Source of the DNA: Arthrobacter sp.
GTDB taxonomy: Bacteria; Actinomycetota; Actinomycetes; Actinomycetales; Micrococcaceae
Assembly (NCBI RefSeq): GCF_031179985.1
Contig: NZ_JAPSHJ010000013.1
Coordinates: forward strand, 12,710 to 76,709
Direction of reading: 5' to 3'
DNA: 64,000 bases
The notes beneath the pieces were generated by a model. It did no database searches, was not told the DNA's origin, and saw nothing but the letters and a program-made list of their open reading frames with translations. A program made the position numbers and the translations under genes. Shown here piece after piece: positions 40,215-64,000 of the stretch. Every line of letters begins with the position of its first letter. Position 1 is the stretch's first letter.

Positions 40215-40313
40215 GCGCGGTCGGCAACAATTTCCCGGCTATTGGCACAAGCCGGCGGCGGGCCCGTTTTCAGGAATCGGGCCCGACGCTGGTAAACTTC
40301 TTGACGATACCTT

Positions 40314-40446
40314 GGCGAGGGAGAGCGGCCGTTAGTTCCGGTAACTTACGGATCAATACCGCAGTCTCCGTTATCGACTGGGTCTGAATCTCCTTCGTGA
40401 AGGGTAGCCGCAAAAGGCTGGCCGGCGTTGAAGGTCGCAACAGACC
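40314..40446 (+). ncRNA. Candidate structured 5' leader of rplY
   Basis: Nested stems GGAGA/TCTCC, GCGG/CCGC, CCGT/ACGG, AGTT/AACT, then GGTCTG/CAGACC and CCTTC/GAAGG; TAAACT -10 at 40293-40298. Confidence 0.45.
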
Positions 40447-40488
40447 TCCGCCCTTGCTGAACACAATTTAGCCTTCAAGGAGATCGAC

Positions 40489-41813: not shown

Positions 41814-42024
41814 CGTCCGGCAGGTCGCGGAGCGGCCTTTGTCAGGGCAAGGAGTACGTCCCTTTCAGGGGCGTGACGGGACGGCGTCGGAATGCGCAAT
41901 TCTTGATGAAATCTAGGTGCCAGCTGCCCTGTTTTACAGTCGGGGCCACGGGGTAGTCTTGCTCGTAAGCGGGGGAAGGCCAGAAAAGCCTTATACCCGC
42001 CACGCGGGACGTAAGGAAAAGTTC

Positions 42025-47679: not shown

Positions 47680-50373
47680 ATGATTCATTCAGACGCCGCC
47701 ACTCTCCCCGGCCTCAGACGCCCACAGGTTTTGCAGGGCGAGCACGTCCCCAACGGCATGTCGGCGTACTGCAGAAAGCCCTTGGTGGATGAGGTTCTGG
47801 CGGCTCTGGCGCAGGGCCAGAACCTCGGCGTGGTCTTGGTGGGGACCTACGGGACAGGAAAGACCTATCTGGCGCGGCAGGCGCTCGATCGACTCGACGG
47901 GCAGGCCTTCGTTGTTCAAATCCGGGGGAGTTCCGCCGCTGATGCCATGCCATACGGCGCCCTGAGTTCGTTGTTGTGCGAACTGGATGAAGACCTGGTC
48001 ACCAGCCCATTGGCCGTACTCAGGGGAATAACGCAACTTCTGCGGCGCAGGGCGGACGGAAAGAGCATCCTCGTGTTTGTGGACAACGTCCAGGACCTCG
48101 ATGAACTTGCCGCAGTGGTCCTCACCCAGCTGGCGGCCAACGGAACGGTGCAGCTCGTCGTCACCTGCCAGGATCTGCCCAAGGCTCCACGTGGGATCGT
48201 GGGGCTGTGGAAGGACGGATTGTTGCACCGCGTGGATGTACGCCCCTTCAGCCAGCCGGACGTAGCGCAGTGGCTGGAAGCAACGCTTGGCGGACCCGTA
48301 TCATTGGCCTGCAGCGAGGTGCTGTACAACGCCAGCGGCGGGAACCCACGCTTTCTGGAAGCCATCCTGCACGAGCAGACCCGGGCGGCCACTCTGGTGC
48401 ATTCCGACGGCGTCTGGGTGCTGACGGGCAAGCCGCTTGCTTACAGCCGGACCATGACAGATACGGTCTTCACTGCCCTCAGTTCCATTTCCGCTGCTGA
48501 GAAGCACGTGACCGAAGTGCTGGCCTTGGCGGGAACCCTGACCCTTGACCATCTCATCAGCGTCAGCGATCCGGCGGCCATTGATGCCCTGCAGCAACGC
48601 GGGTACCTCACCGTAGTGCACGGCGATCCATCGTCGGTTTCCCTCACGAATGCGCTGATGGCCAACGTTGTCCGCAAAGAAGTACCGGCAGGCCGGAGCA
48701 GGGAACTCCTCGCCGGCGTCGTTGCTTGTGCAGATTTCTCCGTTATGCCCCCGTCAGCAGAATTATCCCTGGCCGCATGGGCAGCTGATTGCGGAATGCA
48801 ACTGGAGGCAGATAAGGCTCTCTACGCTGCAGGGCTGGCCAACCGTGCAGGAAACCCGGCCTTGGCCCTCCGCCTCATCGACTTGCTCCATGACCCGGCA
48901 GGGCGGGTTGCAGCTGTGGCGGAAAAGATCAGGGCACTCATCGGGTTGGGTGAGCTGGTGAAGGCGAGGAACCTCGCTTTGGACCCTGCCGCCGTCGCCG
49001 AAGCGCCCTTGAGGCGCTGGGTTGACATCATGCTGCTCCGAAGCGCATTGCTGTGCTCCGATGACAGACCGGAGGCAGATCCGCGTGCGCCGCTGGACGA
49101 AGTCCATGCCCGGCTAAAAGCGGAGGAATCGGGTTCAGACCCTGATGCCCACGGTCTGTTGGATATGCGCGAGGAGCTTTCATTGGCCCAGGCGCAGGTT
49201 GCCGTCCATGATGGCCGGTACCGGGAGGCTCTTTCAGGCCTGACGCGTCTCGTTGATGGTGCGCCAAGCACTGAAGGCCGCACGCTGGCCGCGAGCTTGC
49301 TTGCCGCCCTGTTGGCTCTGACCGGGCGCGGGGCCGAGGCATCATCGCTGATGAGGTCGGTACGGGCGTCGCGCTCAGAAATCGACGTACCGCTGCCTAT
49401 GCACACCTTGCCTGCCTCTGCCCTGTTGGGGTTGCTGCCGGCAGCGTCTACAGCCCACGACGCCGCGGCAGTTGCAGCCGGGTCCAACATCTTCCTGGCG
49501 GCACACGGCGCCACCTCACGGGAGCTTGGAACAGGTGTTCTGGACGCCTACTGCGGACGATCCGAACAGGCTCTGGAACGATTGATCCCCGCCCTGAGCC
49601 AGCTGAAGCAACTGGATCCGGACAGCACGTCCGCATTGGGAGCAGCCTCCATTGCCTACGCGTACGCTTTGCTGGGCGAAAAAGACCTTGCCTTGGAATA
49701 CCTGCAAACGAGCCAGCGGGAGCAAAAACGGACCTCGAGATGGGTACTGAGCGTCTGCTCCTACTTCCAGCTGCTGACCTCCGCTGAACTCGCTTCGAAG
49801 GAAAAGGCAATCGTGCGCCTGTTCGGGCTCGCGGATGAAGCCCGCAGCAGGCACGCCACCGCCCTGGAGCTGATGTTCCTGAGCGCAGCCGTGCGGTTGG
49901 GCAGTAACGGCGGGACTGAGCGCCTGGTGGCGGTTGCGTCCAGCGTCCAGAGCACTCTTGGCCGGCAATGCGAAGCGTATGGAACAGGAGTTATCAAGCG
50001 GAACAGTTCCGCGCTCCTTGAGGTAGCCAGGGAGGCCGCTACCGCAGGAAATGTGGTCTTCGCCAGGGACGCTGCTCGGGCAGCCCTCAAAATTGCGAAC
50101 GATGCTTCTGACAGGAACGCTATCAGGGCCGCGCAGCAGCTGATCCGGGGAGGTGCGCCGGCAGCAGCTGGAGGCGGACACGCGTCCCTGGGGGAGGGGC
50201 AACTGACGGCCCGCGAACATGAGGTGGCAGCCATGGCCGCCGCCGGTGTGAGCAACAAAGACATCGCAGCCAAAATGCATATTTCGGTTCGTACCGTTGA
50301 GGGCCATCTTTACCAGATTTACGGCAAGCTGCAGGTGACCTCACGGGCCGAACTCAGGGAATCATTTGCATAG
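47680..50373 (+). CDS. Large NTPase-LuxR regulator, copy 3
   Basis: GTYGTGKT, VFVDNVQDLD, SGGNP, LTAREHEVA..SNKDIA..SVRTVEGHLYQIYGKL. Confidence 0.93.
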   Translation: MIHSDAATLPGLRRPQVLQGEHVPNGMSAYCRKPLVDEVLAALAQGQNLGVVLVGTYGTGKTYLARQALDRLDGQAFVVQIRGSSAADAMPYGALSSLLCELDEDLVTSPLAVLRGITQLLRRRADGKSILVFVDNVQDLDELAAVVLTQLAANGTVQLVVTCQDLPKAPRGIVGLWKDGLLHRVDVRPFSQPDVAQWLEATLGGPVSLACSEVLYNASGGNPRFLEAILHEQTRAATLVHSDGVWVLTGKPLAYSRTMTDTVFTALSSISAAEKHVTEVLALAGTLTLDHLISVSDPAAIDALQQRGYLTVVHGDPSSVSLTNALMANVVRKEVPAGRSRELLAGVVACADFSVMPPSAELSLAAWAADCGMQLEADKALYAAGLANRAGNPALALRLIDLLHDPAGRVAAVAEKIRALIGLGELVKARNLALDPAAVAEAPLRRWVDIMLLRSALLCSDDRPEADPRAPLDEVHARLKAEESGSDPDAHGLLDMREELSLAQAQVAVHDGRYREALSGLTRLVDGAPSTEGRTLAASLLAALLALTGRGAEASSLMRSVRASRSEIDVPLPMHTLPASALLGLLPAASTAHDAAAVAAGSNIFLAAHGATSRELGTGVLDAYCGRSEQALERLIPALSQLKQLDPDSTSALGAASIAYAYALLGEKDLALEYLQTSQREQKRTSRWVLSVCSYFQLLTSAELASKEKAIVRLFGLADEARSRHATALELMFLSAAVRLGSNGGTERLVAVASSVQSTLGRQCEAYGTGVIKRNSSALLEVAREAATAGNVVFARDAARAALKIANDASDRNAIRAAQQLIRGGAPAAAGGGHASLGEGQLTAREHEVAAMAAAGVSNKDIAAKMHISVRTVEGHLYQIYGKLQVTSRAELRESFA

Positions 50374-51718
50374 CTGACGGAGTCCGACGGAGACTGAGGG
50401 CATCCATGATGGCGGCAACGGCTGCATCCACGCCGACTTCAGCCGTGTTGATGACCAGATCCGCATCAGCCGGCACTTCATAGGGCGAGCTGATTCCGGT
50501 AAATTCCGGAATCTGGCCAGCCCGGGCCCGTGCATAGAGTCCTTTCCTGTCCCGCGCTTCGCACACACTCAGCGGAGTGGACACATGGACCAGGATGAAG
50601 GAGCCCGCCGGAGCCATCGCCCGCACTTCCCGTCGGGTGGAATCAAACGGCGCAATGGGCGCACACACGGCGTCGCCCCCGGAAGCAGCAATCAGCGAAG
50701 CGACCCAGCCGATACGGCGGATGTTCGTTTCCCTGTCCTCCTTTGAGAAGCCGAGCCCCGACGAAAGCAACCGACGGACATCGTCGCCATCGAGTAGTGT
50801 CACAGTCCTCTCACCTGCCGCCTGCAGCCGTTGCGCGAGGGCTCGGGCGATGGTCGATTTTCCCGATCCTGAGAGCCCGGTGAAGAAGACGACGCTACCC
50901 GTAGTGCTGCCTGCCCCCGTGTTGCCCGATACCGGGTGGGCGGGGAGTGACTGGCTTGGGATTGACTGGTTTGGCATTGCCTGGCTTGGACGATGGCCGA
51001 AGCGCGCATGGTCGATGCCGGCCTGTGGCTCATCCGGGACTGTGAAGTCCAGAAGTACATTGGCGCCAAGGTTTCGGAAGACGAGCTCCTGGATCAGCTC
51101 GTCCTCCCGATTGCCCGAACGGGCCGGCGACCGGAGCACCAACAGCCTGGAACTGGAACCGGGAACTTCAGCGGCGCATTGCTCAAGGACAGTCATCAAC
51201 TCCAGCGCTGTATACCGCCCGTGCTGCTGCGGACCGGTAACAGCCACCAGGCAGAGGTCTGCGTTGCGGCTTGCGGCGACGGAAACTGCGCGGGCCATCT
51301 GGGCTGCCAGCGGGGGCTTGGAGAAGGCGGACACAACGAACTTCCGGCCAGCAGCGGAAGCCAGTGGTTCTGTTATGCGCAAGTGTCTGAGAGGCGGATG
51401 CTCTGCTGCCTTAAGCGGGCTCAAGGCCCCTGCGAGGTAGATTCCCGTCCCCGGAGCTGACTCGAAGCCGGAAACTGTCAGGAGGGCCAGGGGGGTGCCG
51501 TCCGGATCGCATAGCAGCAGCGCAGATTCCCGTACGGCGCGTTCGCCCACCGAACGGGGCAGCAACAAGGTCACCGCGGTGGGCCAACGGACCGGAACAC
51601 TGGAGGGCAGGCAGTATCCGTGGGCGGGAGCGTACAAGCCACCCAGAAGGAGCTCAAGCTCATCCAAGGCACCGTCCGAAAGTACGTGCCACGGAAGGGC
51701 GCCCGCATGGGGGGTCAT
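50354..51718 (-). CDS. cysC: Adenylyl-sulfate kinase with an N-terminal degenerate Sat-type ATP-sulfurylase region
   Basis: C-terminal FFTGLSGSGKST, LLDGDDVR, GFSKEDRETNIRRIG, CEARDRKGLY, FTGISSPYEVP; N-terminal LDELELLLGG.YAP..CDPDGTPLALL PUA-like segment. Confidence 0.9.
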   Translation of the reverse strand: MTPHAGALPWHVLSDGALDELELLLGGLYAPAHGYCLPSSVPVRWPTAVTLLLPRSVGERAVRESALLLCDPDGTPLALLTVSGFESAPGTGIYLAGALSPLKAAEHPPLRHLRITEPLASAAGRKFVVSAFSKPPLAAQMARAVSVAASRNADLCLVAVTGPQQHGRYTALELMTVLEQCAAEVPGSSSRLLVLRSPARSGNREDELIQELVFRNLGANVLLDFTVPDEPQAGIDHARFGHRPSQAMPNQSIPSQSLPAHPVSGNTGAGSTTGSVVFFTGLSGSGKSTIARALAQRLQAAGERTVTLLDGDDVRRLLSSGLGFSKEDRETNIRRIGWVASLIAASGGDAVCAPIAPFDSTRREVRAMAPAGSFILVHVSTPLSVCEARDRKGLYARARAGQIPEFTGISSPYEVPADADLVINTAEVGVDAAVAAIMDALSLRRTPSAMQMIP

Positions 51719-52689
51719 GGCTGCCTCTCCATCGAGTGGAGGGTGTGAGTTGCCGATGGTGCTGCGCTGCGGCGTTGGCGCATCTCGCTCGTGGCCAGGG
51801 CGGGAAATCCTTTCGAACGCCGAATGGCCATCCAGACGAACGGCGCCACCAGGACTGCTCCTGCCAGTAATATGGCTGTGGGGAGCGTGTCCACTCCCAG
51901 CATTTTCAGGCCGGAGGCAAACAGGACCACTGCAAGCGCCCTGCGAATGAATCCGCCGTTAAGTCGGCTCGAGAGTTGTGCACCCAAAAAGACGCCCGGC
52001 ACGCTTCCGAGGATCAGGGGAAGCGTCAGTTCGAGGCTGAGCTCACCGAAAAGGGAATGACTGACGGCGGCGGCGGCCACCAGGGGGACAGCCTGTACAA
52101 GGTCCGTTCCTACCAGCTGACCGGCTTTCAGCCCCGGATAAATCATCATCAGCCCGATGATAATGAGTGAACCGGAACCCACTGACGTCATCCCGACCAC
52201 CAGACCGCCGAACACGCCCAGGACTATGGTTACCAGGGGGCGGGCGGATATCAAGGGACGTGCGTGCGGAAGACCGGTGCCCTGTCCGCTCCGGCTTTTA
52301 GCCCGCTCCTGGAGCCTCAGGTACGCCCGGACTGCCAGGAGGCCAGCGGCAAGCAGCAGGGCCGCTCCCAGAGCTGTTTTAACTGTCGTCTGAGCGGCAT
52401 CTCCTGGTCCCAGCCATTTCAGGATCAACACACCGCTGAAGGCTGCCGGGACAGAGCCAATTATCAGCCACTTCACGAGCTCAAGGTTGACGGTGCCGCG
52501 GCGGAGGTGGACTGCCGATCCAACAGGTTTCATGACAGCGCTCGCCACCAGATCACTGGATACCGCAGCCAGGGGCGGAACCCCAAAAACCAGCACGAGT
52601 ACAGGAGTCATCAGCGCGCCACCACCCATGCCGGTAAGACCGACCACTATTCCCACGCCGAAGGCGGCGAACACCAGCATCATGTCCAT
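51715..52689 (-). CDS. TauE/SafE-family (sulfite/sulfate) permease
   Basis: VGLTGMGGGALMTPVLV, AVSSDL, GMTSVGSGSL, LVGTDL.QAVPL, GSVPGV.LGA; start uncertain. Confidence 0.92.
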   Translation of the reverse strand: MDMMLVFAAFGVGIVVGLTGMGGGALMTPVLVLVFGVPPLAAVSSDLVASAVMKPVGSAVHLRRGTVNLELVKWLIIGSVPAAFSGVLILKWLGPGDAAQTTVKTALGAALLLAAGLLAVRAYLRLQERAKSRSGQGTGLPHARPLISARPLVTIVLGVFGGLVVGMTSVGSGSLIIIGLMMIYPGLKAGQLVGTDLVQAVPLVAAAAVSHSLFGELSLELTLPLILGSVPGVFLGAQLSSRLNGGFIRRALAVVLFASGLKMLGVDTLPTAILLAGAVLVAPFVWMAIRRSKGFPALATSEMRQRRSAAPSATHTLHSMERQP

Positions 52690-53115
52690 AAGAGCAGATT
52701 TTGTCACTGCAGGGACCCGCCGGAAATGCGTAGGGGCGGTAGGGAAAGGCAGTACTTTCGGCGGGGGAACAAGTAGTGTCTGCAGCGCTTTCCACAACCC
52801 GGGCGGCGCCGGGCAGACCCGCTCACAGCGCTTCGAAACACTAAATCAGAAGCTCGGCAGAACCAACAGGTAGTTCCCGGATCCACTGTGCCGGCAGACA
52901 GGTAATAGCGGCCCCCGAGTGCGTAAGCAGCCCCCCAAAGACGAGTATGGGCTACCCATGTGCGCCAACGCCGGCCCGCCTACGCTTTTGGTATCAAGTC
53001 ATCCACGCACCGGGTCCGAAGCAGGTCTCACAATGCGCACCAGTAACCCTTTTTCCCCTTTCCTTCCGGTCACTCCCGAAATCGCCCCGCACAGCAATCT
53101 GCGGGTCCCCAGGAC

Positions 53116-53177
53116 GGGGCCGACGGCGTTGAAGTCTTCTGAGACCAAGACTTCTCCCCCCAGTCGTCGTCGGCCCC
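53116..53177 (+). other. Strong two-part hairpin in the 5' region of the polysaccharide operon
   Basis: GGGGCCGACGGCG..CGTCGTCGGCCCC (13 bp, one G-U) enclosing GAAGTCTT-N8-AAGACTTC. Confidence 0.6.
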
Positions 53178-53210
53178 CCAAGCTTTACCCGGCCCGTTAG
53201 GACGGCCCCC

Positions 53211-54758
53211 ATGAGTCCATTGGACGAATCCGCTTTCATGGGCCCGGGCCTGAAACTGGGCCCACACCCGCACAGCTACCCGGAACGTGGCAGTTCACGC
53301 CTCGAGCAATCGAGCCAGCAGACCAAAACCACAGGCCTCAGATGGGCCGGCCGTTACCAGCGGATTCTGTTCCTGTCGGATGCGCTGGTGCTGGCCGTTG
53401 TTGCTGCTGCCGCCCAAGTGGGCAGATTTGGCTTTGACGACAGAGACGTTACGGTCGGATTTTTCGAAGTCGCCTACACCTACCTCTCCATCGGGATCGC
53501 AGCCGCCTGGATGGTGGTGCTTGGTATTTACCGCACACGTGATCCCCGGGTAGTGGGGGTTGGCGCCGAAGAGTACAAGCGCGTCATCAGCGCCACCGTC
53601 ACCCTGTTGGGGCTTGTGGCAATTCTTTGTGCAGTCCTCAAAATTGACGTGGCCAGAGGCTACTTCGCGCTCGCCTTCCCGTTAGGGATCGTGGGGTTGA
53701 TCTCCTCGCGCTGGATTCTGCGCCAGTGGCTCACCAAGCAACGGACATTCGGGCATTATTTGTCGCGCGTCATCGTCCTGGGCCGTGGAAAGGACGTCCG
53801 CTACGTCATCAACCAGATCCAGAAAAAATCAGGCGCTGCATATGAAGTGGTGGGCGCAGCGTTGCCACACGCGGAGGAAAGGGAATTCCTCATTACCGGA
53901 TCAGGTCCGGTTCCTGTGGTGGCCACCGTGGGCACAGTCGTGGAGGCGGTTGAGCGCCTTGAGGCGGACGCCGTGATTGTGGCAGGACCGGTCAAGGGCG
54001 GCAGCAAGTACGTTCAACGGCTGGGTTGGAAGCTGGAGGAATCCGCGACGGAACTGGTGCTGGCCACCGGGTTGACGAACGTGGCCGGCCCCAGAATCCA
54101 TTCCCGCCCGGTTGAGGGACTTCCGCTGATGCATGTGGAGCTTCCACGCTACTCAGGAGCGAAGCACGTCCTCAAGAGGCTCCTGGACATTGTTCTCTCC
54201 GCTATGGCCTTGATCGTCCTGCTTCCTGTTTTCGCGGTCCTCGCATTCCTGATCAAGCGGGACAGTGATGGCCCTGTGATCTTCCGTCAGGAAAGGATTG
54301 GCCAGGGCGGCAAGAAGTTCCTGATGTACAAGTTCCGGTCAATGGTGCAGACGGCCGAGGATGACCTTGCCGGACTTCTGGACCAGAACGAGGGCTCCGG
54401 TGTCCTGTTTAAGATGCGTCATGACCCACGCGTCACGGATGTCGGACGCTGGATGCGCAAATACTCGCTCGACGAACTGCCCCAATTCTGGAATGTGCTG
54501 CTGGGGGACATGAGCCTGGTAGGCCCGCGGCCGCCTCTGCAGCGGGAAGTGGATGGCTATAAGGCCCGTGTCCACAGGAGGCTTTACATCAAGCCAGGCC
54601 TGACAGGAATGTGGCAGATCAACGGACGGTCCGAGCTCAACTGGCAGGACAGCATCCGACTGGACCTCTACTACGTCGAAAACTGGTCACTTGCCGGCGA
54701 CATCATCATCCTGTGGCGGACCGTCAAAATGCTCATCAACCCACAGGGAGCGTACTGA
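53211..54758 (+). CDS. Priming polyprenyl-phosphate sugar-1-phosphate transferase (WcaJ/CpsE/WbaP family)
   Basis: N-terminal TMs, CoA_binding_3-like region, [76 protein letters not shown]. Confidence 0.96.
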
Positions 54759-55678
54759 TGAAGGGCATTCCGATCGATGTGACGCGGCTGACTTTGCTCG
54801 GGGAAATCGCAGCCGTTGCCGGGTCCAGGGCCGATGAAGAGCTGGCGCGCGAGCTGGCCACCGTCGCTGGATCGATGTTGCTCGCCTTCCGGGAATCCGC
54901 GGATGGGGCCGGCTTAGCTGCAGATGAACTGCGTGCTCAGGGTGACGCACGCGCCCAGAAACTGCTGAGCAAGGCCCTGCTTCAGCACCGGCCAGATGAT
55001 GCCGTCCTCTCTGAAGAGGCACCTGACGATCCGGCCCGCCTGTCCGCCCACCGGGTGTGGATCATCGACCCGTTGGACGGAACCAGGGAATTCGCTGAGG
55101 GTCGAAGCGATTGGGCTGTGCATGTTGCGCTGCACTCCCACGGGAGGTTGACCGCTGGAGCGGTTGCCGTTCCCGCATTGGGTTACGTCACTGGCCGCAA
55201 GGACGGGCTATGGGTACGGAAACCCGGCCGGCAGCTTCGAATCGCTGTTTCCCGGTCCCGGCCTCCCCAACTGGCGGAAGCCGTGGCTGGACGACTTGGC
55301 GCAAAACTCGAGCCGATGGGGTCAGCCGGGTACAAAACCTGCGCCGTTATCAGCGGGGAGGTAGATGCCTACCTGCATTCGGGCGGCCAGTTTGAGTGGG
55401 ATTCAGCGGCACCGGTTTTCGCTGCGCGCCAGGCTGGATTGCACGCCAGCCGGGTGGACGGTTCGGAGTTGCTGTACAACCAGAAGTCGCCGAGCCTGCC
55501 TGATCTGCTGATTTGCCACCCAGATATTCGCGACATACTGCTGGTGGCCATTGCGGACGTTCTGAAAGATCCGTCCGGCAGAGGTTCTTTGGCCCAGCGC
55601 GCATCAGGAGAGCGTTCATCAGGACAGCGTCCGTCCGGACAGTCCCGCTATGGGAACGCACAGGACAGGAGAGGCTGA
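54758..55678 (+). CDS. cysQ: 3'(2'),5'-bisphosphate nucleotidase (PAP phosphatase)
   Basis: VLSEE, VWIIDPLDGTREF, DWAVHVAL, VSRSR, MGSAG.K, GQFEWDSAAP; TGATG overlap. Confidence 0.93.
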   Translation: MKGIPIDVTRLTLLGEIAAVAGSRADEELARELATVAGSMLLAFRESADGAGLAADELRAQGDARAQKLLSKALLQHRPDDAVLSEEAPDDPARLSAHRVWIIDPLDGTREFAEGRSDWAVHVALHSHGRLTAGAVAVPALGYVTGRKDGLWVRKPGRQLRIAVSRSRPPQLAEAVAGRLGAKLEPMGSAGYKTCAVISGEVDAYLHSGGQFEWDSAAPVFAARQAGLHASRVDGSELLYNQKSPSLPDLLICHPDIRDILLVAIADVLKDPSGRGSLAQRASGERSSGQRPSGQSRYGNAQDRRG

Positions 55679-56595: not shown

Positions 56596-57842
56596 TGGAT
56601 CTCTTGAGATTTGCCACGGCGGGATCCGTAGATGACGGCAAGAGCACCTTGATCGGACGGTTGCTCTATGACTCGAAATCCATCTTCACGGATCAGCTTG
56701 AATCCATTGAGCGGACCAGCCGGGCCATGGGTTCGGACTACACGGAACTGGCGTTGCTCACTGACGGGTTAAGGGCAGAACGTGAGCAAGGGATAACCAT
56801 CGACGTCGCCTATAGATACTTTGCTACGGCTAAGCGGAAATTCATCGTGGCGGACACACCCGGACATATCCAGTACACACGGAACATGGTGACCGGGGCA
56901 TCCACCGCCGACATGGCTATTATGCTCGTCGATGCGCGGAAGGGGCTGCAGGAGCAAAGCCGGCGCCATGCATTCCTTGTCTCGCTGCTGAAAGTGCCGC
57001 ACCTGGTGCTTGCCATAAACAAGATGGATCTCGTTGCCTGGTCTCAGGACGTCTTTGAGGATATCCGGCATGACTTCGTGGAATTCGCCGCCAAGCTCGA
57101 TATTCCTGACCTGACGGTCATACCGCTTTCCGCCCTCACCGGTGACAACGTGGTGAGCCGCTCAGAGAATATGCCCTGGTACCAGGGAACGTCGCTGATG
57201 ACCCATCTGGAGAACGTTTACATAGCCAGTGACAGGAATTTGGTGGATGGCCGGTTCCCTGTCCAATACGTGATCCGGCCCCATTCAAACCGCTTCCCCG
57301 ATTACCGCGGGTACGCGGGGAAGATCGCCGGCGGAGTCATGCGCATCGGCGATGAGGTGGTGGTCCTGCCCAGCGGGCTTCCGTCGCGCATCGCCTCGAT
57401 CGAGTCCGCAAGCGGACCTGTCAACGAAGCGTTCGCTCCAATGTCCGTCGTCGTGCGGCTCGAGGACGACATTGATATCTCACGCGGGGACATGATTTGC
57501 AGACCGCACAACCAGCCAAAAGTCTCGCAGGATATTGACGCGATGATCTGTTGGATGAGCGAGGAGCCCTTGCGCCCGGGCCAGAAGCTGGTGGTCAAGC
57601 ACACCACACGGCGGGCGCGGGCACTCGTCAAGGACGTGCAGTACGAACTGGACATCAACACCCTGCACCGCAACGAACAGGCGGAGGAGCTCAAGCTCAA
57701 CTCCATCGGGAGGGTTCGGCTGCGCACCACCATTCCGCTTCTTGCGGATGAGTACCACCGAAACAGGGAAACAGGCGGCTTCATCCTCATTGATGAACAC
57801 TCCCTGCGAACAGTAGGCGCGGGGATGATCCTGTCCGTCTGA
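56595..57842 (+). CDS. cysN: Sulfate adenylyltransferase subunit 1 (GTPase), no fused CysC
   Basis: TAGSVDDGKSTLIGRLL, DGLRAEREQGITIDVAYRYF, DTPGH.QYTRNMVTGAS, NKMD, RFPVQYV, TGGFILID..TVGAGM. Confidence 0.97.
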   Translation: MDLLRFATAGSVDDGKSTLIGRLLYDSKSIFTDQLESIERTSRAMGSDYTELALLTDGLRAEREQGITIDVAYRYFATAKRKFIVADTPGHIQYTRNMVTGASTADMAIMLVDARKGLQEQSRRHAFLVSLLKVPHLVLAINKMDLVAWSQDVFEDIRHDFVEFAAKLDIPDLTVIPLSALTGDNVVSRSENMPWYQGTSLMTHLENVYIASDRNLVDGRFPVQYVIRPHSNRFPDYRGYAGKIAGGVMRIGDEVVVLPSGLPSRIASIESASGPVNEAFAPMSVVVRLEDDIDISRGDMICRPHNQPKVSQDIDAMICWMSEEPLRPGQKLVVKHTTRRARALVKDVQYELDINTLHRNEQAEELKLNSIGRVRLRTTIPLLADEYHRNRETGGFILIDEHSLRTVGAGMILSV

Positions 57843-57895
57843 AGCATCCGCCGGTACGTCACCGGCTCGTCAAAGAAACGTGGAGAAACGAGACG

Positions 57896-58399
57896 ATGAG
57901 AACAGCCAGGTATGGTGTCCGCAATCATCCCGTTGCGCCCGGAACCGAGAGGATTCTGCTGGTTGGATCCAGCGGCGGCCATCTCGCGCAATTGCTGGCC
58001 CTTGAACCCTGGTGGGCGCACCAATCGAGGGCCTGGGTAACCTTCAAAACGCCCGACGCCGAGTTCGGCCTGCGGAATGAGCAAGACGTCACTTGGGCAT
58101 ACTCCCCAACCACCCGGAACATCCCGAACCTGCTGCGGAACTCAAAACTGGCGTGGTCATTGATGCGGCAGTTCCGTCCAACCGTGGTGATCTCGACTGG
58201 AGCAGGAAGCGCCCTGCCCTTTTTTGCCCTTGCGAAGATGATGTCCACCACAACTGTGTACATAGAAGTTTATGACCGGGTAGACAGCCCCACGCTCACC
58301 GGAAGACTGTGCCGGCCATTTACCGACCTGATGTTGGTCCAGTGGCGTGACCAGCTGGGACTCTACCGTGACGCCCATGTACTGGGGAGACTGCTGTGA
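57896..58399 (+). CDS. Alg14/PssD/CpsF-family glycosyltransferase N-half (acceptor-binding)
   Basis: LVGSSGGHLAQL, WVTF..PD, PTTRNIPNL, VVISTGAG.ALPFF, VYIEV.DR..PTLTGRL, VQW. Confidence 0.93.
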   Translation: MRTARYGVRNHPVAPGTERILLVGSSGGHLAQLLALEPWWAHQSRAWVTFKTPDAEFGLRNEQDVTWAYSPTTRNIPNLLRNSKLAWSLMRQFRPTVVISTGAGSALPFFALAKMMSTTTVYIEVYDRVDSPTLTGRLCRPFTDLMLVQWRDQLGLYRDAHVLGRLL

Positions 58400-59691
58400 A
58401 CGAGGCTCCAGTACATGGCCAGCCGGACAATGCCTCCACTCCGAGAAGCATCAGTGTTCTTGTGGGTACTGACCATCACGAGTTTTCCCGGTTGGTCGAC
58501 TGGGCTGATGGTTGGGCAACCGAACATCCGCAGGACAAAGTCACGGTGCAGTTCGGCCACAGCCGGGCACCCGCTTCTGCCGAGGGGCACAGCTTCATGT
58601 CTCCTGCCGCGCTCGCCGAACTCATGGCCACGAGCGACATCGTTGTTGCGCATGGCGGACCTGCCACTATCTCCGGGGCGAGAGCTGCGGGGCACGTACC
58701 GCTGGTGCTGCCAAGGGATCCGGCCCTGGGAGAGCATGTTGACGATCATCAGCAGCGGTTCGCGAGCTGGTCCGCCCAGAGATCGTTGGTCACCAAGGTG
58801 GTATCGGTGCCGGAGCTGCAGGAACGGGTCTCGGCCTTGGCAGGGGAAGGTTCAGGGACCAAGAGCGGAAACCTCGATGGAGCGCGGCAGGGCGACGACG
58901 CGGCAAGCCACCTTCCGCTGCTCCTGGCGAAGGCGAGGACTGCAACCAACCGAGCCACTCCAGGCGCCCCCGTGGTTTTGTACGTCTCCGGCGCAAGTGC
59001 GGCGACGTCGTCGTACCTTTCCGCCCTCAGCCGTGCAGAAGGCGCCGTGATGCTGGGGGATATCGGGCAGCTATGGGAGCAGGGCATAGTCAAAAACGCC
59101 GGCTGCGCCTGCGGGGCGCCTTTTTCCTCCTGTCAGTTCTGGCTTCGAGTGGGGAAGGAGGCCTTTGGAGGCTGGGATGATGTGGACGTCCGCTCCATCA
59201 AACGGCTGGGGGAGTCCGTCAGGTCTGCTGGAAAACTGATGCTGGGGGTCCTGCCCTTTGAACCTCCGTTGCTCCGCCGACAGCTCGCTGAGCACTCGTC
59301 GTACTACCTTGCTCTGTTCCGGGCAGTGCAGGACATCACCGGCGGGAAGGTGCTGGTGTGTTGCGGTGCGGACCCTGTTCTGGCTTTCGCCTTGAGCCAC
59401 AACCGTGAAATTGATGTGCGGATTCTGTATCTGGCTGGAAGGCCGGGCCGGCCAGTGATCAGCGACGACGTCCCCGGTTCGTTAGCCGCGAGATGGCTGT
59501 CCTCGAGGATGGGGGCACAATTCCTCAGGATGCGTCACGTTCCCCGCGCCGTCATCGGGCGCAAGCGTTATCTGAACGACCCCTTGAAAGCACTGCACTC
59601 GGTGGGCCGAAAACTCGAGCTCCCCGATTCCTGGCCCGTTCAAGGCGCTCCCCAGGAGTTCCATCCCCTTCTGCGAGAGGACCTGCCGTGA
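58396..59691 (+). CDS. Fusion: Alg13/PssE/CpsG GT28 C-half plus a degenerate sulfotransferase-like domain
   Basis: VLVGTDHHEFSRL..VQFG..VVAHGGPATI..PR....GEHVDDHQ (PssE); from aa ~193 VVLYVSG..GDIGQLWEQG..CACGAPFSSCQFW..AFGGW..YYLALFRAVQDITGGKVLV. Confidence 0.8.
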   Translation: MNEAPVHGQPDNASTPRSISVLVGTDHHEFSRLVDWADGWATEHPQDKVTVQFGHSRAPASAEGHSFMSPAALAELMATSDIVVAHGGPATISGARAAGHVPLVLPRDPALGEHVDDHQQRFASWSAQRSLVTKVVSVPELQERVSALAGEGSGTKSGNLDGARQGDDAASHLPLLLAKARTATNRATPGAPVVLYVSGASAATSSYLSALSRAEGAVMLGDIGQLWEQGIVKNAGCACGAPFSSCQFWLRVGKEAFGGWDDVDVRSIKRLGESVRSAGKLMLGVLPFEPPLLRRQLAEHSSYYLALFRAVQDITGGKVLVCCGADPVLAFALSHNREIDVRILYLAGRPGRPVISDDVPGSLAARWLSSRMGAQFLRMRHVPRAVIGRKRYLNDPLKALHSVGRKLELPDSWPVQGAPQEFHPLLREDLP

Positions 59692-60596
59692 GCACGGTGT
59701 CGGTGATCATAGCCACGCGGGACCGCCCCGAGATGCTCAGGGAGGCGATCGCGGCGGTCGCTGGCCAGGCCTTCGACGGCGAGATTGAAATCATCGTGGT
59801 TTACGATCAGTCAGCCCCGGACACCTCACTCCAAGCATCAGAGGGCACCAGGCGTGTCAGGGTGATCAGCAACTCCCGCACCCCCGGCCTGGCAGGGGCC
59901 CGCAACAGCGGAATCCTTGCTGGCACCGGAGACTATGTGGCCTTTTGCGACGACGACGACTACTGGAAGCCCGGAAAGCTCGCGGCCCAGGTCAAACGGA
60001 TGGAGACCGATTCCGGCGTCGAGTTTGTCACGTGTGGAATTTCAGTACAGTACGACGGCGTCACTCACGACCGCCCGCTGGGCAGGGACATCGTGACCTT
60101 CGATGAACTGCTGCGGGACCGGCACACGGAGCTGCACCCCTCAACCTTTTTGATGCGGCGTTCAGCGGCAATCACTGGTTTTGGACTTGTGGACGAAGAG
60201 GTTCCCGGCGGATTCGGCGAAGACTACGAGTTTCTGCTCCGGGCCGCAAAATCCCACTCGATTGCCCATGTTCGTGAGGTTCTGGCGGTGGTTCGCTGGG
60301 GTGGACAGTCATTCTTCTTCAGGCGCTGGCAGACCATGTCCGACGGGCTGTCCTGCCTGCTCGACAGATTCCCGGAATTTGAAACTACACCTGCCGGCTC
60401 TGCCAGGATCCGGGGGCAGATTGCCTTCGCGAACGCCGCTTTGAAGAACCGGCGGATTGCCCTCCTGTGGGCAGTGTCGGCCTTCAGGCGCAACCCCCTT
60501 GAACTGAGAGCGCCGCTGGCAATCGCCGTCGCCGCCGGGGTGCTGTCCCCGGACAGGGTGATGGTTGAGCTGCACAAGCGGGGGCGGGGAATCTAA
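59688..60596 (+). CDS. GT2-family glycosyltransferase
   Basis: VSVIIATRDR, VVYDQS, GLAGARNSG, AFCDDDDYW, EDYEFLLR; GTGA overlap. Confidence 0.93.
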   Translation: MSTVSVIIATRDRPEMLREAIAAVAGQAFDGEIEIIVVYDQSAPDTSLQASEGTRRVRVISNSRTPGLAGARNSGILAGTGDYVAFCDDDDYWKPGKLAAQVKRMETDSGVEFVTCGISVQYDGVTHDRPLGRDIVTFDELLRDRHTELHPSTFLMRRSAAITGFGLVDEEVPGGFGEDYEFLLRAAKSHSIAHVREVLAVVRWGGQSFFFRRWQTMSDGLSCLLDRFPEFETTPAGSARIRGQIAFANAALKNRRIALLWAVSAFRRNPLELRAPLAIAVAAGVLSPDRVMVELHKRGRGI

Positions 60597-60639
60597 AACG
60601 CGGAATCTTAGACGTGGCAGGATCTTCGCGGCGGACTAC

Positions 60640-60674
60640 AAGAGGCGGCAGGAGCATTGCTCCGGCCGCCTCTT
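60640..60674. terminator. Hairpin between convergent operons, possibly bidirectional
   Basis: AAGAGGCGGC-a-GGAGC-att-GCTCC-g-GCCGCCTCTT. Confidence 0.6.
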
Positions 60675-60699
60675 CCCTGTCCACGAAGCCAACTGTCAG

Positions 60700-61779
60700 T
60701 CAGTATCCAAACACCCGTTCCACCACACGTATCGAGGCCTGTCCATCGTCCAGCGGGCAGAAACGTGAGACGAAGGTCCGGTACCGCTCTGCATTGGCGC
60801 GGTGGCCCTCCTCCAGATTGCTCAAGGCGGCGCCCAGGGATTCGGTGTCCGTCACGATGGTTCCTGGCGCCCACTCCTCGTAGTCGTAGTACAACCCACG
60901 AACATTGTCCCGGTAGCGGGCCAGGTCGTAGGGGAAGAGAACTATTGGCTTTCCGGTGACTGCAAAGTCAAAAATGGCTGAGGAGTAGTCCGAGACCATC
61001 ACATCTGCCGCCAAATAAAGTTCGGCGATATCCGGGTAATTGCTGACGTCGAGAGTAAAGCCGTCGCGGCCAGGCGGCGCGCTCTTCACCACGCTGTGCA
61101 TGCGGTTGAGGATTACTGTTCCGGCAGGTGTTGTCTTCTGCAGCAGATCCAGGTCCAAGACCCCGGGATCCGTGAATTTCCCGTCTGGATGGGGAGAATC
61201 ATCGCGCCATGTGGGGGCGTTCAGGACCACCAGGGCGGAAGGATCCAGCCCAAGCTCCTTGCGTACTTCTTCCCTGATCCTTGGCGCTTCGGCCGACTTA
61301 AGGATGTCGTTACGAGGGTAGCCGGTTTCCAGCAACTCCCCATCAAATCGGAACGCACCCCTGAGAATGTCGGAGCTGCTGGGAGCTGGGGAGAGCAGGT
61401 AGTCCCATTTTTTGATGTCCCGTTCAAGCCGCTTCTGATGGGCGGCAGCGCCTGGGTAAGTCCTGAACTCCTCGTCGAAACCAATGGTCTTGAACGGGGT
61501 ACCGTGCCAGGTTTGGAGATACCTGACCCTTGGACCTTTGACCAGGTGTTTGCTGACGACATCATTGCTGATGAGGTAGTGGCAGCTGTACAGCCTCGCA
61601 AAGTACTCCGGGGTGTGCCGACGCACCCTGGCTACGCCGTCAGGCAAGCGGGTTGATTCGTCCGCCACCCAAACCAGTTTCAGATCGGGGCGGAGCTTTT
61701 GCAGGGCCTCGGAAATGGCCCGGGGGCTGTCAGCGTATTTTCCACGCCAGCTTTCAAAGAGAACGGTTTTCTGTTTCAT
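60700..61779 (-). CDS. TagF/TagB-family CDP-polyol:glycopolymer phosphotransferase
   Basis: FESWRG.YADSP, QTWHGTPFK.IG.D, GYPRND, APTWR, RMH, SDYSSAIFDF, CP.DDG.AS; both catalytic-type His motifs present. Confidence 0.92.
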   Translation of the reverse strand: MKQKTVLFESWRGKYADSPRAISEALQKLRPDLKLVWVADESTRLPDGVARVRRHTPEYFARLYSCHYLISNDVVSKHLVKGPRVRYLQTWHGTPFKTIGFDEEFRTYPGAAAHQKRLERDIKKWDYLLSPAPSSSDILRGAFRFDGELLETGYPRNDILKSAEAPRIREEVRKELGLDPSALVVLNAPTWRDDSPHPDGKFTDPGVLDLDLLQKTTPAGTVILNRMHSVVKSAPPGRDGFTLDVSNYPDIAELYLAADVMVSDYSSAIFDFAVTGKPIVLFPYDLARYRDNVRGLYYDYEEWAPGTIVTDTESLGAALSNLEEGHRANAERYRTFVSRFCPLDDGQASIRVVERVFGY

Positions 61780-63407
61780 ATCTCGTTCCTTTCAGGGGAA
61801 GGGGAGTCTTTTCTCGAGAGAATGGTTTTTAGTGTCGGCAGGCGCAGCTTCCCCCGCCAGAGCCACAGGAGAAACGCATACGCCGCACAGCCGGCTGCCA
61901 GGACGCCGAAGAACTCCCCCAGGTGCGTCCGCTGCAGCAGACTCAGGGTCAGCAGCGGGATTCCGAGGCAAGCCACATTGGCCACCGCTACCAGTGCCGA
62001 CCGCCAGCCGAATGGGTCCATGGCGAGGAGCTTCTTGACCCTCTCGAGAGTCAGTAAGTTCTTGAGTAAAACGGCGATGCCCCATGCAACCGCAGCACCG
62101 ACAATTCCCCACAGCGGAATGAGGATCAGGCAAAGACCGATATCCGCCGCCAAAGTAGTCAATGCAATCCAAAGACTGGTCCGGCTGCCGCCTGCCATCA
62201 ACAACAAGGTGTCCAATGGCCCGGCAGCAACGCCTGCAAGCATGGCGATACTCATCAGAATCACCACCGCTCCGGCACTTTCCACGTTGTAGCCTGCGCC
62301 GAAGATCATCAGGTAGAAGCCGCCCGCTGCCCCTGTGACCATGTAGAGCGGCCAGGCTACGGCCATGCTCCACGCTGTCGAGATCCGGAAGACGTCAGCC
62401 GCATCCGCATGGCGCCCTTTTGCAAGGAGTTGGCTGAACCGGGGTTGCAGGACCTGTTGAATTGCTTGGGTGGCGAACTGGCCCAGGGCCACGAACCGTG
62501 TTGCCGCTGTGTAGAGCGCCGCATCCTGCACAGACAGCAGGGCGGCGATCAGGATGATGTCGGAACGCTGAAGCAGGATCTGGCAAAGACGCGCAATTCC
62601 CCGCGGCCAGGTGAAACCCCAGAATTCCCGACGGACCATCGCGCGGTCATTCAGCGGCGCCGTGTGGTGATCAATACCGCGGCGGCGAAGCATTCTGCGG
62701 AAGATCAGGACCGATACCACGCCTGCAATGGCGTACGGGGCAACCCATCCGGCGGAGAGCAGGAGCACTCCGCCGCCAGCCAGGGCAGCCAGCCAAACGC
62801 TCAGCGGCTGCAGCATAGTGCGCAGGAACTTGTCGATCAGGACGGTGCTGCGTACCGTTCCGAAAGAGCGGGCACCTGCCAACGAAAAATCACCCCAGGC
62901 GGCCACCGGCAGGAGCAAGGCAAACATCAGCAGGACCAGGGAGCCTTGGGGAGTGTCCAGGCCGATCAAAGGTGCCAGTTGGCCGGCCAGAAGGGCAGTT
63001 CCCAGCGCCAGCACCAGGCTGGTCAGCAGGACCGGACGGAGGGCGACTGACAGACATTGGGAGATATCAGCAGTGCGGCCAGTCGCCTCGTACCGGAGCA
63101 TAAAGCGGGCCAGCCCGCTTTCAGTACCCAGGGAGGCGGCACCCAGCAATATCAGAAACGCAGATGATGCTGCGAAGAACATACCGGCAGTGGCCTGGTC
63201 ATAGAGTTGGGTGACCACCACGATGAGACCGAAGCCGAAAACCGCGGAAACGGCTGCCCCGAGGAGGTTGAACACTCCACTGCGTGCAATATGCGATAGC
63301 TGGGCGTCGACCGCTTCAGTGTTCGCCGCTTCACTGCCCACGAGCACTGGCACTGCTGGAGGCGACTGGAACTTTGGCAGCGGCGGGTCCCTCTGCTCCA
63401 TTTCCAT
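61776..63407 (-). CDS. Wzx-type (MOP superfamily) oligosaccharide flippase
   Basis: IARSGVFNLLGA, about 12-14 TMs, RSDIILIAAL..ALYTAA.R, LLLMAG, NL.LIP.WGIVGAA. Confidence 0.9.
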   Translation of the reverse strand: MEMEQRDPPLPKFQSPPAVPVLVGSEAANTEAVDAQLSHIARSGVFNLLGAAVSAVFGFGLIVVVTQLYDQATAGMFFAASSAFLILLGAASLGTESGLARFMLRYEATGRTADISQCLSVALRPVLLTSLVLALGTALLAGQLAPLIGLDTPQGSLVLLMFALLLPVAAWGDFSLAGARSFGTVRSTVLIDKFLRTMLQPLSVWLAALAGGGVLLLSAGWVAPYAIAGVVSVLIFRRMLRRRGIDHHTAPLNDRAMVRREFWGFTWPRGIARLCQILLQRSDIILIAALLSVQDAALYTAATRFVALGQFATQAIQQVLQPRFSQLLAKGRHADAADVFRISTAWSMAVAWPLYMVTGAAGGFYLMIFGAGYNVESAGAVVILMSIAMLAGVAAGPLDTLLLMAGGSRTSLWIALTTLAADIGLCLILIPLWGIVGAAVAWGIAVLLKNLLTLERVKKLLAMDPFGWRSALVAVANVACLGIPLLTLSLLQRTHLGEFFGVLAAGCAAYAFLLWLWRGKLRLPTLKTILSRKDSPSPERNEI

Positions 63408-63999
63408 TCTTCTTGCTGCCCGCCATCAGATTGCCGGAAGTCTTGGCGGGACGCGTCCTGGCCGGTTCCAAAACCACGGCTCCAAGCAGGTTCACGGATA
63501 GCTCCCGGCAGACTTCAACAGAACTGTTAAGGTCCGTGACCTTGGTAGAGCCATAGGCGATCTCAACAATGACGGATTTGAAAGTACTCGCCAACAGCTG
63601 GGCATTGGGGCTGAGCATAGGACCAGTGACGACCAGCACAACGTCTGCACGGTGCGCCAGCGAGCCAATCACCCCGATGAGCCGGGGGGTGACCCGGTGC
63701 TGTGCAGAGCCTGCTTCCCGGGAACCGCTGCCCAGGACCTGAAGCGTGGGTGACAGGCTCACCAATGTTTCGTCAACGGCGATATTCTCGTCCAGGAGGT
63801 CAGCCAGGCCTGGATAATCTGCCCGGACCAAGGGTGGCATGACCAGGCGGCCCGTCGTGTCTACAACGAGTGTCTTGATCCCTGCCTCTGCAAGCGACCA
63901 GGCGATTGAGACTGCAGAGAGCGGCTGCGCTGCGTCTTTACCGGCAGTACTCAACAGGATGACATTGCTCCGGTGAAGCCTGGTGAAGTCCAGGACGTT
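63331..63999 (-). CDS. Wzc/CpsD-like (BY-kinase fold) C-terminal domain, degenerate; gene begins beyond the window
   Basis: Frame open to the window edge (NVLDFTRLHRSNVILLSTAGK..); SIAWSLAEAGIKTLVVD, PGLADLL, L.VL.SG, DVVLV..GP, VIVEI..G.T, NLLGAVV. Confidence 0.75.
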   Translation of the reverse strand, partial: NVLDFTRLHRSNVILLSTAGKDAAQPLSAVSIAWSLAEAGIKTLVVDTTGRLVMPPLVRADYPGLADLLDENIAVDETLVSLSPTLQVLGSGSREAGSAQHRVTPRLIGVIGSLAHRADVVLVVTGPMLSPNAQLLASTFKSVIVEIAYGSTKVTDLNSSVEVCRELSVNLLGAVVLEPARTRPAKTSGNLMAGSKKNGNGAEGPAAAKVPVASSSASARGQ

Positions 64000-64000
64000 G

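Follow-up and report, generated by a model that had tools for sequence, protein, structure and literature searches.

An Arthrobacter polysaccharide locus with a conserved sulfate-activation module, a degenerate sulfotransferase domain and a TagF-like gene where sister clusters carry a sulfotransferase

Does a polysaccharide locus that carries genes for sulfate activation also sulfate its own product? The question is raised by positions 50354-64000 of a 64,000-nucleotide stretch of Arthrobacter sp. DNA (contig NZ_JAPSHJ010000013.1; the whole stretch is called the window below). The initial annotation of this locus proposed a self-contained pathway to a sulfated, and probably phosphate-containing, cell-surface polysaccharide, with its own supply of 3'-phosphoadenosine 5'-phosphosulfate (PAPS). 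We found that every gene named there is real and in place, and that the locus, as far as its sequence tells, cannot sulfate by any recognisable enzyme. With moderate confidence, we read it as a Wzx/Wzy cluster that would derive from an actinobacterial family of predicted sulfated-polysaccharide clusters; its sulfating module would have been swapped for a glycerol-phosphate module, and the PAPS would now be used by a sulfotransferase encoded in trans. The evidence comes from gene identities, motif loss, synteny, co-occurrence and selection.

The locus consists of three transcription units. The pair tauE-cysC lies on the minus strand (50354-52797), opposite to a plus-strand unit of seven genes without real gaps, which runs from the priming polyprenyl-phosphate hexose-1-phosphate transferase (PGT) through cysQ, cysD, cysN, pssD and a pssE fusion to a GT2 glycosyltransferase. 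Its junctions are, in this order, TGATG, TGATG, TAATG, a 53-nt gap between cysN and pssD, GTGA and GTGA. The third unit, on the minus strand and convergent to the second, carries Wzc-like, Wzx and TagF-like genes. Both the translational coupling of cysQ-cysD-cysN behind the priming transferase and the opposite orientation of tauE-cysC, as described in the initial annotation, can be read directly in the sequence.

Genes were called from long open reading frames (ORFs) and Pfam matches; a gene filter based on GC content at third codon positions was not discriminating at 62% GC. The E values of domains given below are from Pfam unless another source is named, and the curated cut-offs are those of NCBIfam; the latter were exceeded by CysD, CysN, the APS kinase domain (APS, adenosine 5'-phosphosulfate) and the priming transferase. 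When every large ORF in the 64-kb window was scanned with Pfam, no sulfotransferase family matched. The same scans detected no PAPS/APS reductase except CysD and no sulfite reductase, in agreement with the earlier remark that the window has no cysH or sulfite reductase gene.

The PAPS genes themselves are intact, embedded in the locus and under purifying selection. CysQ (54758-55678, +), a PAP phosphatase (PAP, 3'-phosphoadenosine 5'-phosphate) by its Inositol_P match (E 7e-32), starts within the PGT stop (TGATG); among PDB entries it comes closest to CysQ of M. tuberculosis (5DJF, E 4.9e-61), and its score with the NCBIfam CysQ model is below the cut-off. CysD, the small subunit of ATP sulfurylase (55678-56595, +), overlaps cysQ by TGATG and scores 420 bits with TIGR02039 (cut-off 396.6). 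CysN, the GTPase subunit without a fused kinase (56595-57842, +), overlaps cysD by TAATG and scores 574 bits with TIGR02034 (cut-off 336).

CysC (50354-51718, -; 454 aa) is a two-domain APS kinase. Its N-terminal ~270 aa form a degenerate ATP-sulfurylase-like domain, and the APS kinase domain lies behind it at aa 272-441 (APS_kinase, E 6e-57 at aa 274-424; TIGR00455, 188 bits, above the cut-off). The best PDB match, with both domains aligned, is the Thiobacillus denitrificans two-domain APS kinase 3CR8 (E 1.1e-66). The order of domains is the same, and the N-domain of the window protein is even more degenerate: it has lost the catalytic HxxH, reading FSKPPLAAQMA where 3CR8 reads QPMHRAQ, and matches PF01747 at an E value of just 0.013. 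CysC is thus a 3CR8-type protein, with a C-terminal APS kinase behind an ATP-sulfurylase-like domain that lacks HxxH. The adjacent TauE/SafE permease of the TSUP (DUF81) family (51715-52797, -; likely start ATG 52689, 324 aa; PF01925, E 1.8e-42) has a stop codon that overlaps the cysC start (ATGA). By analogy, it is a probable sulfate importer; the TSUP family includes CysZ of C. glutamicum, a sulfate transporter (PMC1266029, PMC5840216).

The presence of cysC and cysQ is informative by analogy with characterised relatives. C. glutamicum and M. tuberculosis assimilate sulfate via APS reductase, with no need for CysC (PMC1266029), and therefore a cysC-cysQ set would point to PAPS-dependent sulfotransfer, the use to which actinobacteria put PAPS instead of assimilation. 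A close parallel is the sulfation supply of M. tuberculosis (CysDN-CysC and CysQ, Rv2131c), whose CysQ is the best PDB match named above. However, CysC is not fused to CysN here as it is in M. tuberculosis, and the window set lies inside a polysaccharide operon.

The only sequence in the window that resembles a sulfotransferase is a part of the pssE gene. The initial annotation called this gene PssE, which is right for its N-terminal half, and overlooked that the ORF (58396-59691, +) encodes a fusion of 431 aa, in which the last 245 aa derive from a sulfotransferase. The PssE/Cps14G/Alg13-like catalytic half (58396-58950, +; residues 19-150; Glyco_tran_28_C, E 3.5e-9) is the nucleotide-sugar-binding half of a GT-B fold; in the AlphaFold2 (AF2) model it has a predicted local distance difference test score (pLDDT) above 90, and Foldseek matches it to the C-terminal halves of GT-B enzymes.

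The remainder (58951-59691, +) is homologous to Sulfotransfer_3, even though residues ~186-431 have no Pfam match up to E 10. Distant full-length homologs of the fusion, from a search of 5.8 billion proteins, carry PF13469/PF00685 at the same position, and a hidden Markov model of intact fused sulfotransferase domains matches the window domain at E 4e-40. Alignments show, nevertheless, that the blocks interpreted here as PAPS-binding and catalytic motifs are lost. In the 5'-phosphosulfate-binding (5'-PSB) loop, GxGRSGSTL is replaced by GASAATSSYL, with replacement residues that vary among close relatives (MAFFT alignment); the DSSKH block VVDSSKH became LVCCGADP; the 3'-phosphate-binding (3'-PB) block LHLVRDxRxVAYSW became LYLAGRPGR with a deletion; and the C-terminal segment HxVAGNPMRF is absent from a truncated C-terminus. 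These losses are common to the Arthrobacter/Paenarthrobacter clade, which retains the element CxCG..F..C.FW..GK.AFGGW and ALSHNREID.R.

With all three conserved blocks gone, we regard the domain as a conserved pseudo-sulfotransferase, which by its sequence should be unable to bind PAPS canonically. It is under purifying selection, with a dN/dS (the ratio of nonsynonymous to synonymous substitution rates) of 0.14-0.18, and its AF2 model is confident (pLDDT 84; predicted template-modeling score, pTM, 0.82). We infer a role as a scaffold or binding module. Foldseek with the C-domain alone returned weak matches (E 1e-3 or worse, TM 0.35-0.45), with adenylate kinases mixed with TPST2, Stf9 and Stf0; with the full-length model the result was dominated by the glycosyltransferase half, and a profile search of PDB sequences with the fusion alignment gave marginal glycosyltransferase matches alone.

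The claim of self-containment therefore did not survive: the lone sulfotransferase-like sequence lacks 5'-PSB, 3'-PB and DSSKH, there is no other in 64 kb, and sulfation would need a sulfotransferase encoded elsewhere. The initial annotation had itself held that the absence of a PAPS-consuming enzyme near the locus or in the genome would speak against its reading; near the locus, in the window as well as within 10 kb downstream in the six lineages described next, we detected none.

A comparison across taxa, which had been proposed as a check, was made over Actinobacteria. The fusion alignment retrieved 80 loci in one scan of GTDB species representatives, and these were combined with earlier loci and annotated by profile searches. 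The counts rest on 61 distinct full-length related loci; the best match to the fusion among GTDB representatives is 52% identical. The members of this cluster family come from Arthrobacter, Paenarthrobacter, Nocardioides, Catellatospora, Nocardiopsis and many uncultured lineages. We found the family to be almost always sulfotransferase-bearing: at least one sulfotransferase, as an intact fused domain or as 1-4 standalone genes, was present in 55 of the 61 loci. Seventeen loci have at least three PAPS genes in their flanks, 13 of them with a sulfotransferase, and the four without are exactly loci with the TagF-like gene (TagF-type loci). Among all loci compared, this gene is confined to loci that have no sulfotransferase. 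Because all TagF-type loci belong together in a single related group, this perfect association counts as one event and not as statistics.

Six TagF-type lineages are known including the window. The others are represented by contigs at 93% and ~85% identity, Arthrobacter sp. H14-L1, Paenarthrobacter sp. DKR-5 and Paenarthrobacter sp. Z7-10 (L090), the last of which repeats the same pattern. In none of the six did Pfam detect a sulfotransferase within 10 kb downstream.

In the sister loci L007, L011, L013 and L014 (Arthrobacter sp. Hor0625, YAF16, Soil763 and one metagenome-assembled genome), tauE-cysC and PGT-cysQDN-pssD-fusion-GT2 are in common with the window, and the fused domain is degenerate as in the window. 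On the other hand, a standalone sulfotransferase lies 4-5.5 kb downstream, in a right half that also has a distant Wzx, a different polysaccharide co-polymerase (PCP), a separate Wzy and no TagF. The distance between the two Wzx is large: E 4e-38 between cluster types versus 2e-230 within a type. The sister sulfotransferase belongs to a large family with 63-89% identity across Arthrobacter, Paenarthrobacter and Nocardioides (among the best 120 of 2,925 matches). Since the degenerate fused domain coexists there with a working standalone enzyme, it is not the sulfotransferase of those clusters. The simplest reading of these sequences would be a single exchange of the right module in the ancestor of the TagF-type clade.

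More widely, the sister PssD/PssE-sulfotransferase clusters (L014, L007, L011; L009 of Nocardioidaceae; L006 of uncultured Actinomycetota) have the same fusion architecture, with 1-3 standalone sulfotransferases and/or an intact fused domain and without TagF; in the window, TagF is present together with another Wzx/PCP/Wzy set, and a sulfotransferase is absent. As a separate observation, six clusters of uncultured Actinomycetota (L005, L006, L017, L018, L021 and L022) combine an intact PssE-sulfotransferase fusion with up to three further sulfotransferases and with large PKD/Malectin surface proteins, and have no PAPS genes within 10 kb. Judging by their gene content, these clusters probably make heavily sulfated polymers.

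What stands in the place of the sulfotransferase in the window is a TagF/TarF-like CDP-glycerol glycerophosphotransferase of 359 aa (60700-61779, -). Its match to Glyphos_transf (PF04464, E 6.8e-96) covers 355 of 367 positions. The alignment with S. epidermidis TagF (3L7I, E 2e-72) places H444 and H584, the catalytic histidines of TagF, at H92 and H228 of the window enzyme. The earlier expectation of a phosphate-containing polymer thus appears well supported by the retention of both residues. While the catalytic domain of 3L7I is matched over its full length, the window enzyme lacks the N-terminal half of TagF, and its gene lies in a Wzx/Wzy heteropolysaccharide operon rather than in an ABC-type teichoic acid operon. 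For these two reasons, it probably adds glycerol phosphate to the repeat unit and does not polymerise poly(glycerol phosphate). Glycerol phosphate is the most likely decoration, because the right module carries the TagF-like gene where the sisters have a sulfotransferase; that the polymer carries it is, on sequence grounds, highly probable. In H14-L1 (L004:19258-20610), the gene directly after the cluster joins a TagD-like cytidylyltransferase to a Gfo/Idh/MocA oxidoreductase and is a possible supply gene for CDP-glycerol or a modified CDP-alditol.

We also observed that the PAPS genes were kept after the exchange. In comparisons of the window with its relatives at 93% and ~85% nucleotide identity within the TagF-type lineage (dS up to ~0.9), dN/dS was 0.03-0.06 for the APS kinase domain, 0.05-0.09 for cysD, 0.03-0.05 for cysN and 0.12-0.15 for cysQ. 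These values are as low as those for the glycosyltransferases; for the CysC N-domain, dN/dS was 0.22. Moreover, cysC, cysQ, cysD and cysN are intact in 6/6 TagF-type lineages, among which the fusion protein has diverged to ~50% identity. PAPS would still be made, because the cys genes are intact, coupled and constrained.

The permease gene had a different fate, having been lost twice with different end-points. L001/L002 lack window positions 51760-52603 (844 bp, near position 4192), and in L003 (3878-4440) a larger replacement covers approximately window positions 51447-52849; the neighbouring cysC is intact in both cases. Taken together, selection appears to have maintained PAPS synthesis long after the sulfotransferase was replaced, with the dedicated permease TauE being dispensable.

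The remaining genes fit repeat-unit assembly of the Wzx/Wzy type, as the initial annotation had it: the PGT exceeds its cut-off, the flippase belongs to the MOP family by its orthologues, and in the relatives a protein with a weak Wzy_C match is encoded past the window end. The large PGT (53211-54758, +; Bac_transf, E 8e-70; CoA_binding_3), which would prime the repeat unit, scores 427 bits with TIGR03025 (cut-off 295.55). We leave its sugar unassigned because the scores with the NCBIfam WbaP and WcaJ models are below the cut-offs. The PssD/Cps14F/Alg14-like subunit (57896-58399, +; Alg14, E 1.5e-10) would anchor the two-part glycosyltransferase to the membrane. R. leguminosarum PssD/PssE and S. 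pneumoniae Cps14F/Cps14G have the same two-gene split and act on the lipid-linked first sugar after a Bac_transf enzyme. Compared with them, the window proteins score under the equivalog cut-offs (NF041549, 105.8 bits against 110; NF041548, 54 against 120), and the Alg13-like half bears the extra pseudo-sulfotransferase domain. The GT2 enzyme (59688-60596, +; 302 aa; Glycos_transf_2, E 1.5e-25) starts at GTG 59688, which overlaps the fusion stop (GTGA), and not at ATG 59493; its relatives are called at 302 aa.

The multi-transmembrane Wzx-type flippase (61776-63407, -; likely start near 63347, 523 aa) has a stop codon that overlaps the tagF start (ATGA). It has no Pfam match itself, E 10 included; its orthologues (E 2e-230 to 0), among them those in L003 and L008, match Polysacc_synt/Polysacc_synt_3. 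The Wzc-like PCP (63331-64000, -) runs off the window with the C-terminal 222 of its 546 aa; a full orthologue is found at L001:14957-16597. It was described as Wzc-like, and the co-polymerase identity stands by its topology. The kinase part does not: similarity to CapB is weak (E 0.08), Pfam at E 10 gave nothing useful on the fragment, AGKDAGQ stands in place of the Walker A motif GAGKS, and a C-terminal Tyr cluster is absent, which together speak against a BY-kinase, the bacterial tyrosine kinase type. This PCP is the second apparent pseudoenzyme in the locus.

An exact look-up of the window Wzx protein returned no record, and genes past 64 kb were therefore read from relatives of the fusion protein, namely the five TagF-type lineages listed above. 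There, the 546-aa co-polymerase is followed by a protein of 745 aa that matches Wzy_C weakly and has a PCP-like C-terminus fused to it. In L001 (16682-18919, -), it has an O-antigen-ligase/Wzy_C-like membrane domain and a PCP/Wzz-like C-terminus with a coiled coil and a final transmembrane helix, and the fusion is kept in all TagF-type loci. Further downstream, H14-L1 has the TagD-like fusion and the other TagF-type relatives have a giant PKD-repeat protein. The initial annotation had suggested searching this region for a Wzy and an intact sulfotransferase: a Wzy-like fusion is indeed there in the relatives, and a sulfotransferase is absent within 10 kb.

From these genes, we infer the following order of steps. 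Sulfate would be taken up by TauE or other transporters and converted to APS by CysDN and to PAPS by CysC, with CysQ removing PAP. The large PGT would put hexose-1-phosphate on undecaprenyl phosphate, PssD/PssE would add a second sugar and GT2 a third, and the TagF-like enzyme would add sn-glycerol phosphate from CDP-glycerol. Wzx would then flip the unit, and the Wzy-PCP fusion together with the dead-kinase PCP would polymerise and set the length; LCP-mediated attachment to the wall would probably come last. The PAPS presumably goes to a sulfotransferase whose gene lies elsewhere in the genome. Whether such an enzyme acts on this polymer is a different matter, and we consider sulfate on the polymer possible but somewhat less probable than its absence.

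Several observations weigh against this reading. No PAPS-consuming sulfotransferase was found, and the whole argument for one encoded in trans is the selection on the PAPS genes. In isolate-like assemblies of the 93% relative, no contig matches the sister sulfotransferase gene at ≥80% nucleotide identity, a weak negative that covers that family only; the match of these assemblies to a sister locus is confined to one contig, the cluster-bearing one. The sequencing runs that contain the window (X1-X8) are complex metagenomes, in which the presence of a gene is not assignable to one genome. A TagD-like gene as a source of CDP-glycerol was seen neither in the window nor at the corresponding position in L001, L003 and L008. 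The double loss of tauE in close relatives is a hint that constraint on the sulfate module is somewhat relaxed. Finally, the locus of Z7-10 (L090:1168-4410) has an SsuA/NMT1-type ABC importer (binding protein, ATPase and permease) and an Rrf2 regulator inserted between tauE and PGT. This insertion would fit a dedicated sulfur supply or a link to general sulfur metabolism.

The last point leads to the explanation in which the module serves assimilation or housekeeping: PAPS would go to a PAPS-type CysH, CysQ would detoxify PAP, and the polymer would be unsulfated. E. coli does use CysDN, CysC, PAPS reductase and CysQ (PMC1266029). The lack of a sulfotransferase in or near the locus is in line with such a role, as is the sulfonate-type importer of Z7-10 with its regulator, and the purifying selection on cysDNCQ is equally explained if assimilation makes these genes essential. 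We still consider this explanation unlikely. In several orders of actinobacteria, the cysQDN/cysC module sits inside polysaccharide clusters that do carry a sulfotransferase, which argues for sulfation as its ancestral role, and there is no cysH or sulfite reductase within 64 kb. Arthrobacter genomes usually have a separate sirA-cysH-cysDN cluster, which also counts against it. So does the use of APS reductase without CysC by the characterised actinobacteria cited above.

Could the locus be self-contained after all, either through a non-canonical PAPS site on the domain fused to PssE or through another sulfotransferase that is not recognised as such? The PAPS module is coupled inside a glycosyltransferase operon and under strong purifying selection, the fused domain is constrained and confidently folded, and the cluster family is otherwise rich in sulfotransferases. 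However, the residues that replaced 5'-PSB, DSSKH and 3'-PB are not conserved among close relatives, the same degenerate domain stands beside a standalone sulfotransferase in the sister clusters, and neither the window nor the 10-kb flanks in the six TagF-type lineages gave a Pfam sulfotransferase match. We therefore regard self-contained sulfation as very unlikely. The specific routes that one might propose, an active site rebuilt on the pseudo-domain, perhaps together with the APS/PAPS-binding N-domain of CysC, or a TagF-like enzyme that uses an adenylyl-sulfate donor instead of CDP-glycerol, seem to us a long shot. If true, such a route would amount to a polysaccharide sulfotransferase of a new class and would explain the constrained PAPS module in six lineages.

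One could also think of the PAPS module as a relic, non-functional and decaying since the sulfotransferase was lost. The independent deletions of tauE in two close relatives and the fused domain, already degenerate, are in its favor. But four intact cys genes in six lineages with fusion proteins as distant as ~50% identity, at dN/dS of 0.03-0.15 and dS up to ~0.9, are not what decay would leave. The selection data largely refute this reading of the PAPS genes, and we consider it extremely unlikely. A module swap in a sulfation-derived cluster, with PAPS used in trans, remains the explanation that we favor.

The surroundings of the locus also distinguish the two cluster types. Between rplY and the polysaccharide genes lie three tandem paralogues of LAL-type regulators (41917-44763, 44741-47461 and 47680-50373, all +) of 948, 906 and 897 aa, with AAA_16 and LuxR/GerE helix-turn-helix domains (Pfam). 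The first two overlap by 23 nt, and the third, convergent to cysC, shares 20 nt with it at their 3' ends. The third has a dN/dS of 0.07 and an orthologue at the same position in the TagF-type loci L001, L003, L004 and L008. A LAL-type LuxR regulator flanks every TagF-type relative, but is absent within 10 kb from all sister loci of the sulfotransferase type.

Between the two convergent operons, a 17-nt inverted repeat (60640-60674) is a candidate hairpin of a bidirectional terminator, with no U-tract; a consensus scan for intrinsic terminators and promoters between these operons gave no match.

Elsewhere in the window, the genes are of housekeeping type: manA, an LCP protein, purK, S-adenosylhomocysteine hydrolase, an L,D-transpeptidase, PMT and MoxR/DUF58/TgpA, then rpf, ksgA, ispE, glmU, prs and rplY, up to the LAL regulators. 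Positions 7782-12873 (+) encode a 1105-aa GT2 with a long multi-transmembrane C-terminal part and then a DUF5719 protein. A dip in AT skew at 8-10 kb (-0.24) was considered as a separate element and rejected, as it is the transmembrane-rich coding sequence of the 1105-aa GT2 region. We observed, in addition, that a cluster member in Nocardioidaceae (L009, 17325-21254) adjoins pth-rplY-prs-glmU, and the window cluster follows glmU-prs-rplY (37672-41082). With both at the same rplY neighborhood, the site may be regarded as an old hot spot that hosts variable polysaccharide loci in different actinobacterial orders.

Animals, algae and cyanobacteria are well-established producers of sulfated polysaccharides, and recent work has added some marine Gammaproteobacteria. 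One of them is Vibrio sp. KMM 8419, which has a product of proven structure; there, the joint presence of PAPS genes and sulfotransferase genes has been called the hallmark of a sulfated polysaccharide cluster (PMC11641403). The window locus has the PAPS genes and no intact sulfotransferase gene; with just half of the hallmark present, we do not class it as a sulfated-polysaccharide cluster. The capsular clusters of KMM 8419 and Cobetia marina KMM 1449 also hold cysD, cysN and cysC, as second copies (PMC11641403). In contrast to the window locus, they have three intact sulfotransferases, ABC (Kps) export and a chemically proven sulfated product; the window locus is of Wzx/Wzy type and adds CysQ and the TauE permease. 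The cyanobacterial xss/synechan system of Synechocystis is Wzx/Wzy-dependent like the window locus, and its product was shown to be sulfated (PMC8205485).

Within actinobacteria, wps-1 of Actinoplanes missouriensis is likewise Wzx/Wzy-dependent, with a predicted sulfated extracellular polysaccharide (PMC13390465). It was proposed in 2026 as the first hint for actinobacteria, without chemical proof; the source still calls sulfated polysaccharides of actinobacteria an untested possibility (PMC13390465). The two loci are opposites in gene content: wps-1 has two sulfotransferases and no reported PAPS genes or PssDE pair, whereas the window locus has PAPS genes and no sulfotransferase. Our literature search found no paper on, and no experimental characterisation of, the actinobacterial PssD/PssE-sulfotransferase cluster family. 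For tecogalan, which the initial annotation had named as a possible relative of the product, the search gave a reference-list entry in PMC2191722 to an antiangiogenic Arthrobacter polysaccharide (1989), which in that form ties it to no genes. If any cluster of this family makes a tecogalan-like product, the sulfotransferase-type Arthrobacter clusters (Soil763, Hor0625, YAF16 and STN4) would be better candidates.

What is new here is a sulfation-derived cluster in which a glycerophosphotransferase replaces the sulfotransferase and the PAPS module is orphaned but alive. Its pseudo-sulfotransferase domain is a clean case of such a domain kept under selection on a glycosyltransferase. The locus also gives a caution for annotation, namely that PAPS genes alone do not imply a sulfated product. 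Beyond the window, the comparison brought out a large family of Wzx/Wzy clusters, conserved among actinobacteria, with a PssD/PssE-sulfotransferase core and, often, their own PAPS supply. This family makes sulfated wall or capsular polymers of actinobacteria directly testable, and the puzzle specific to the window variant is a PAPS module that has no local sulfotransferase. The TagF-type and sulfotransferase-type soil isolates offer matched pairs for asking if sulfate and glycerol phosphate can stand in for each other as anionic decorations.

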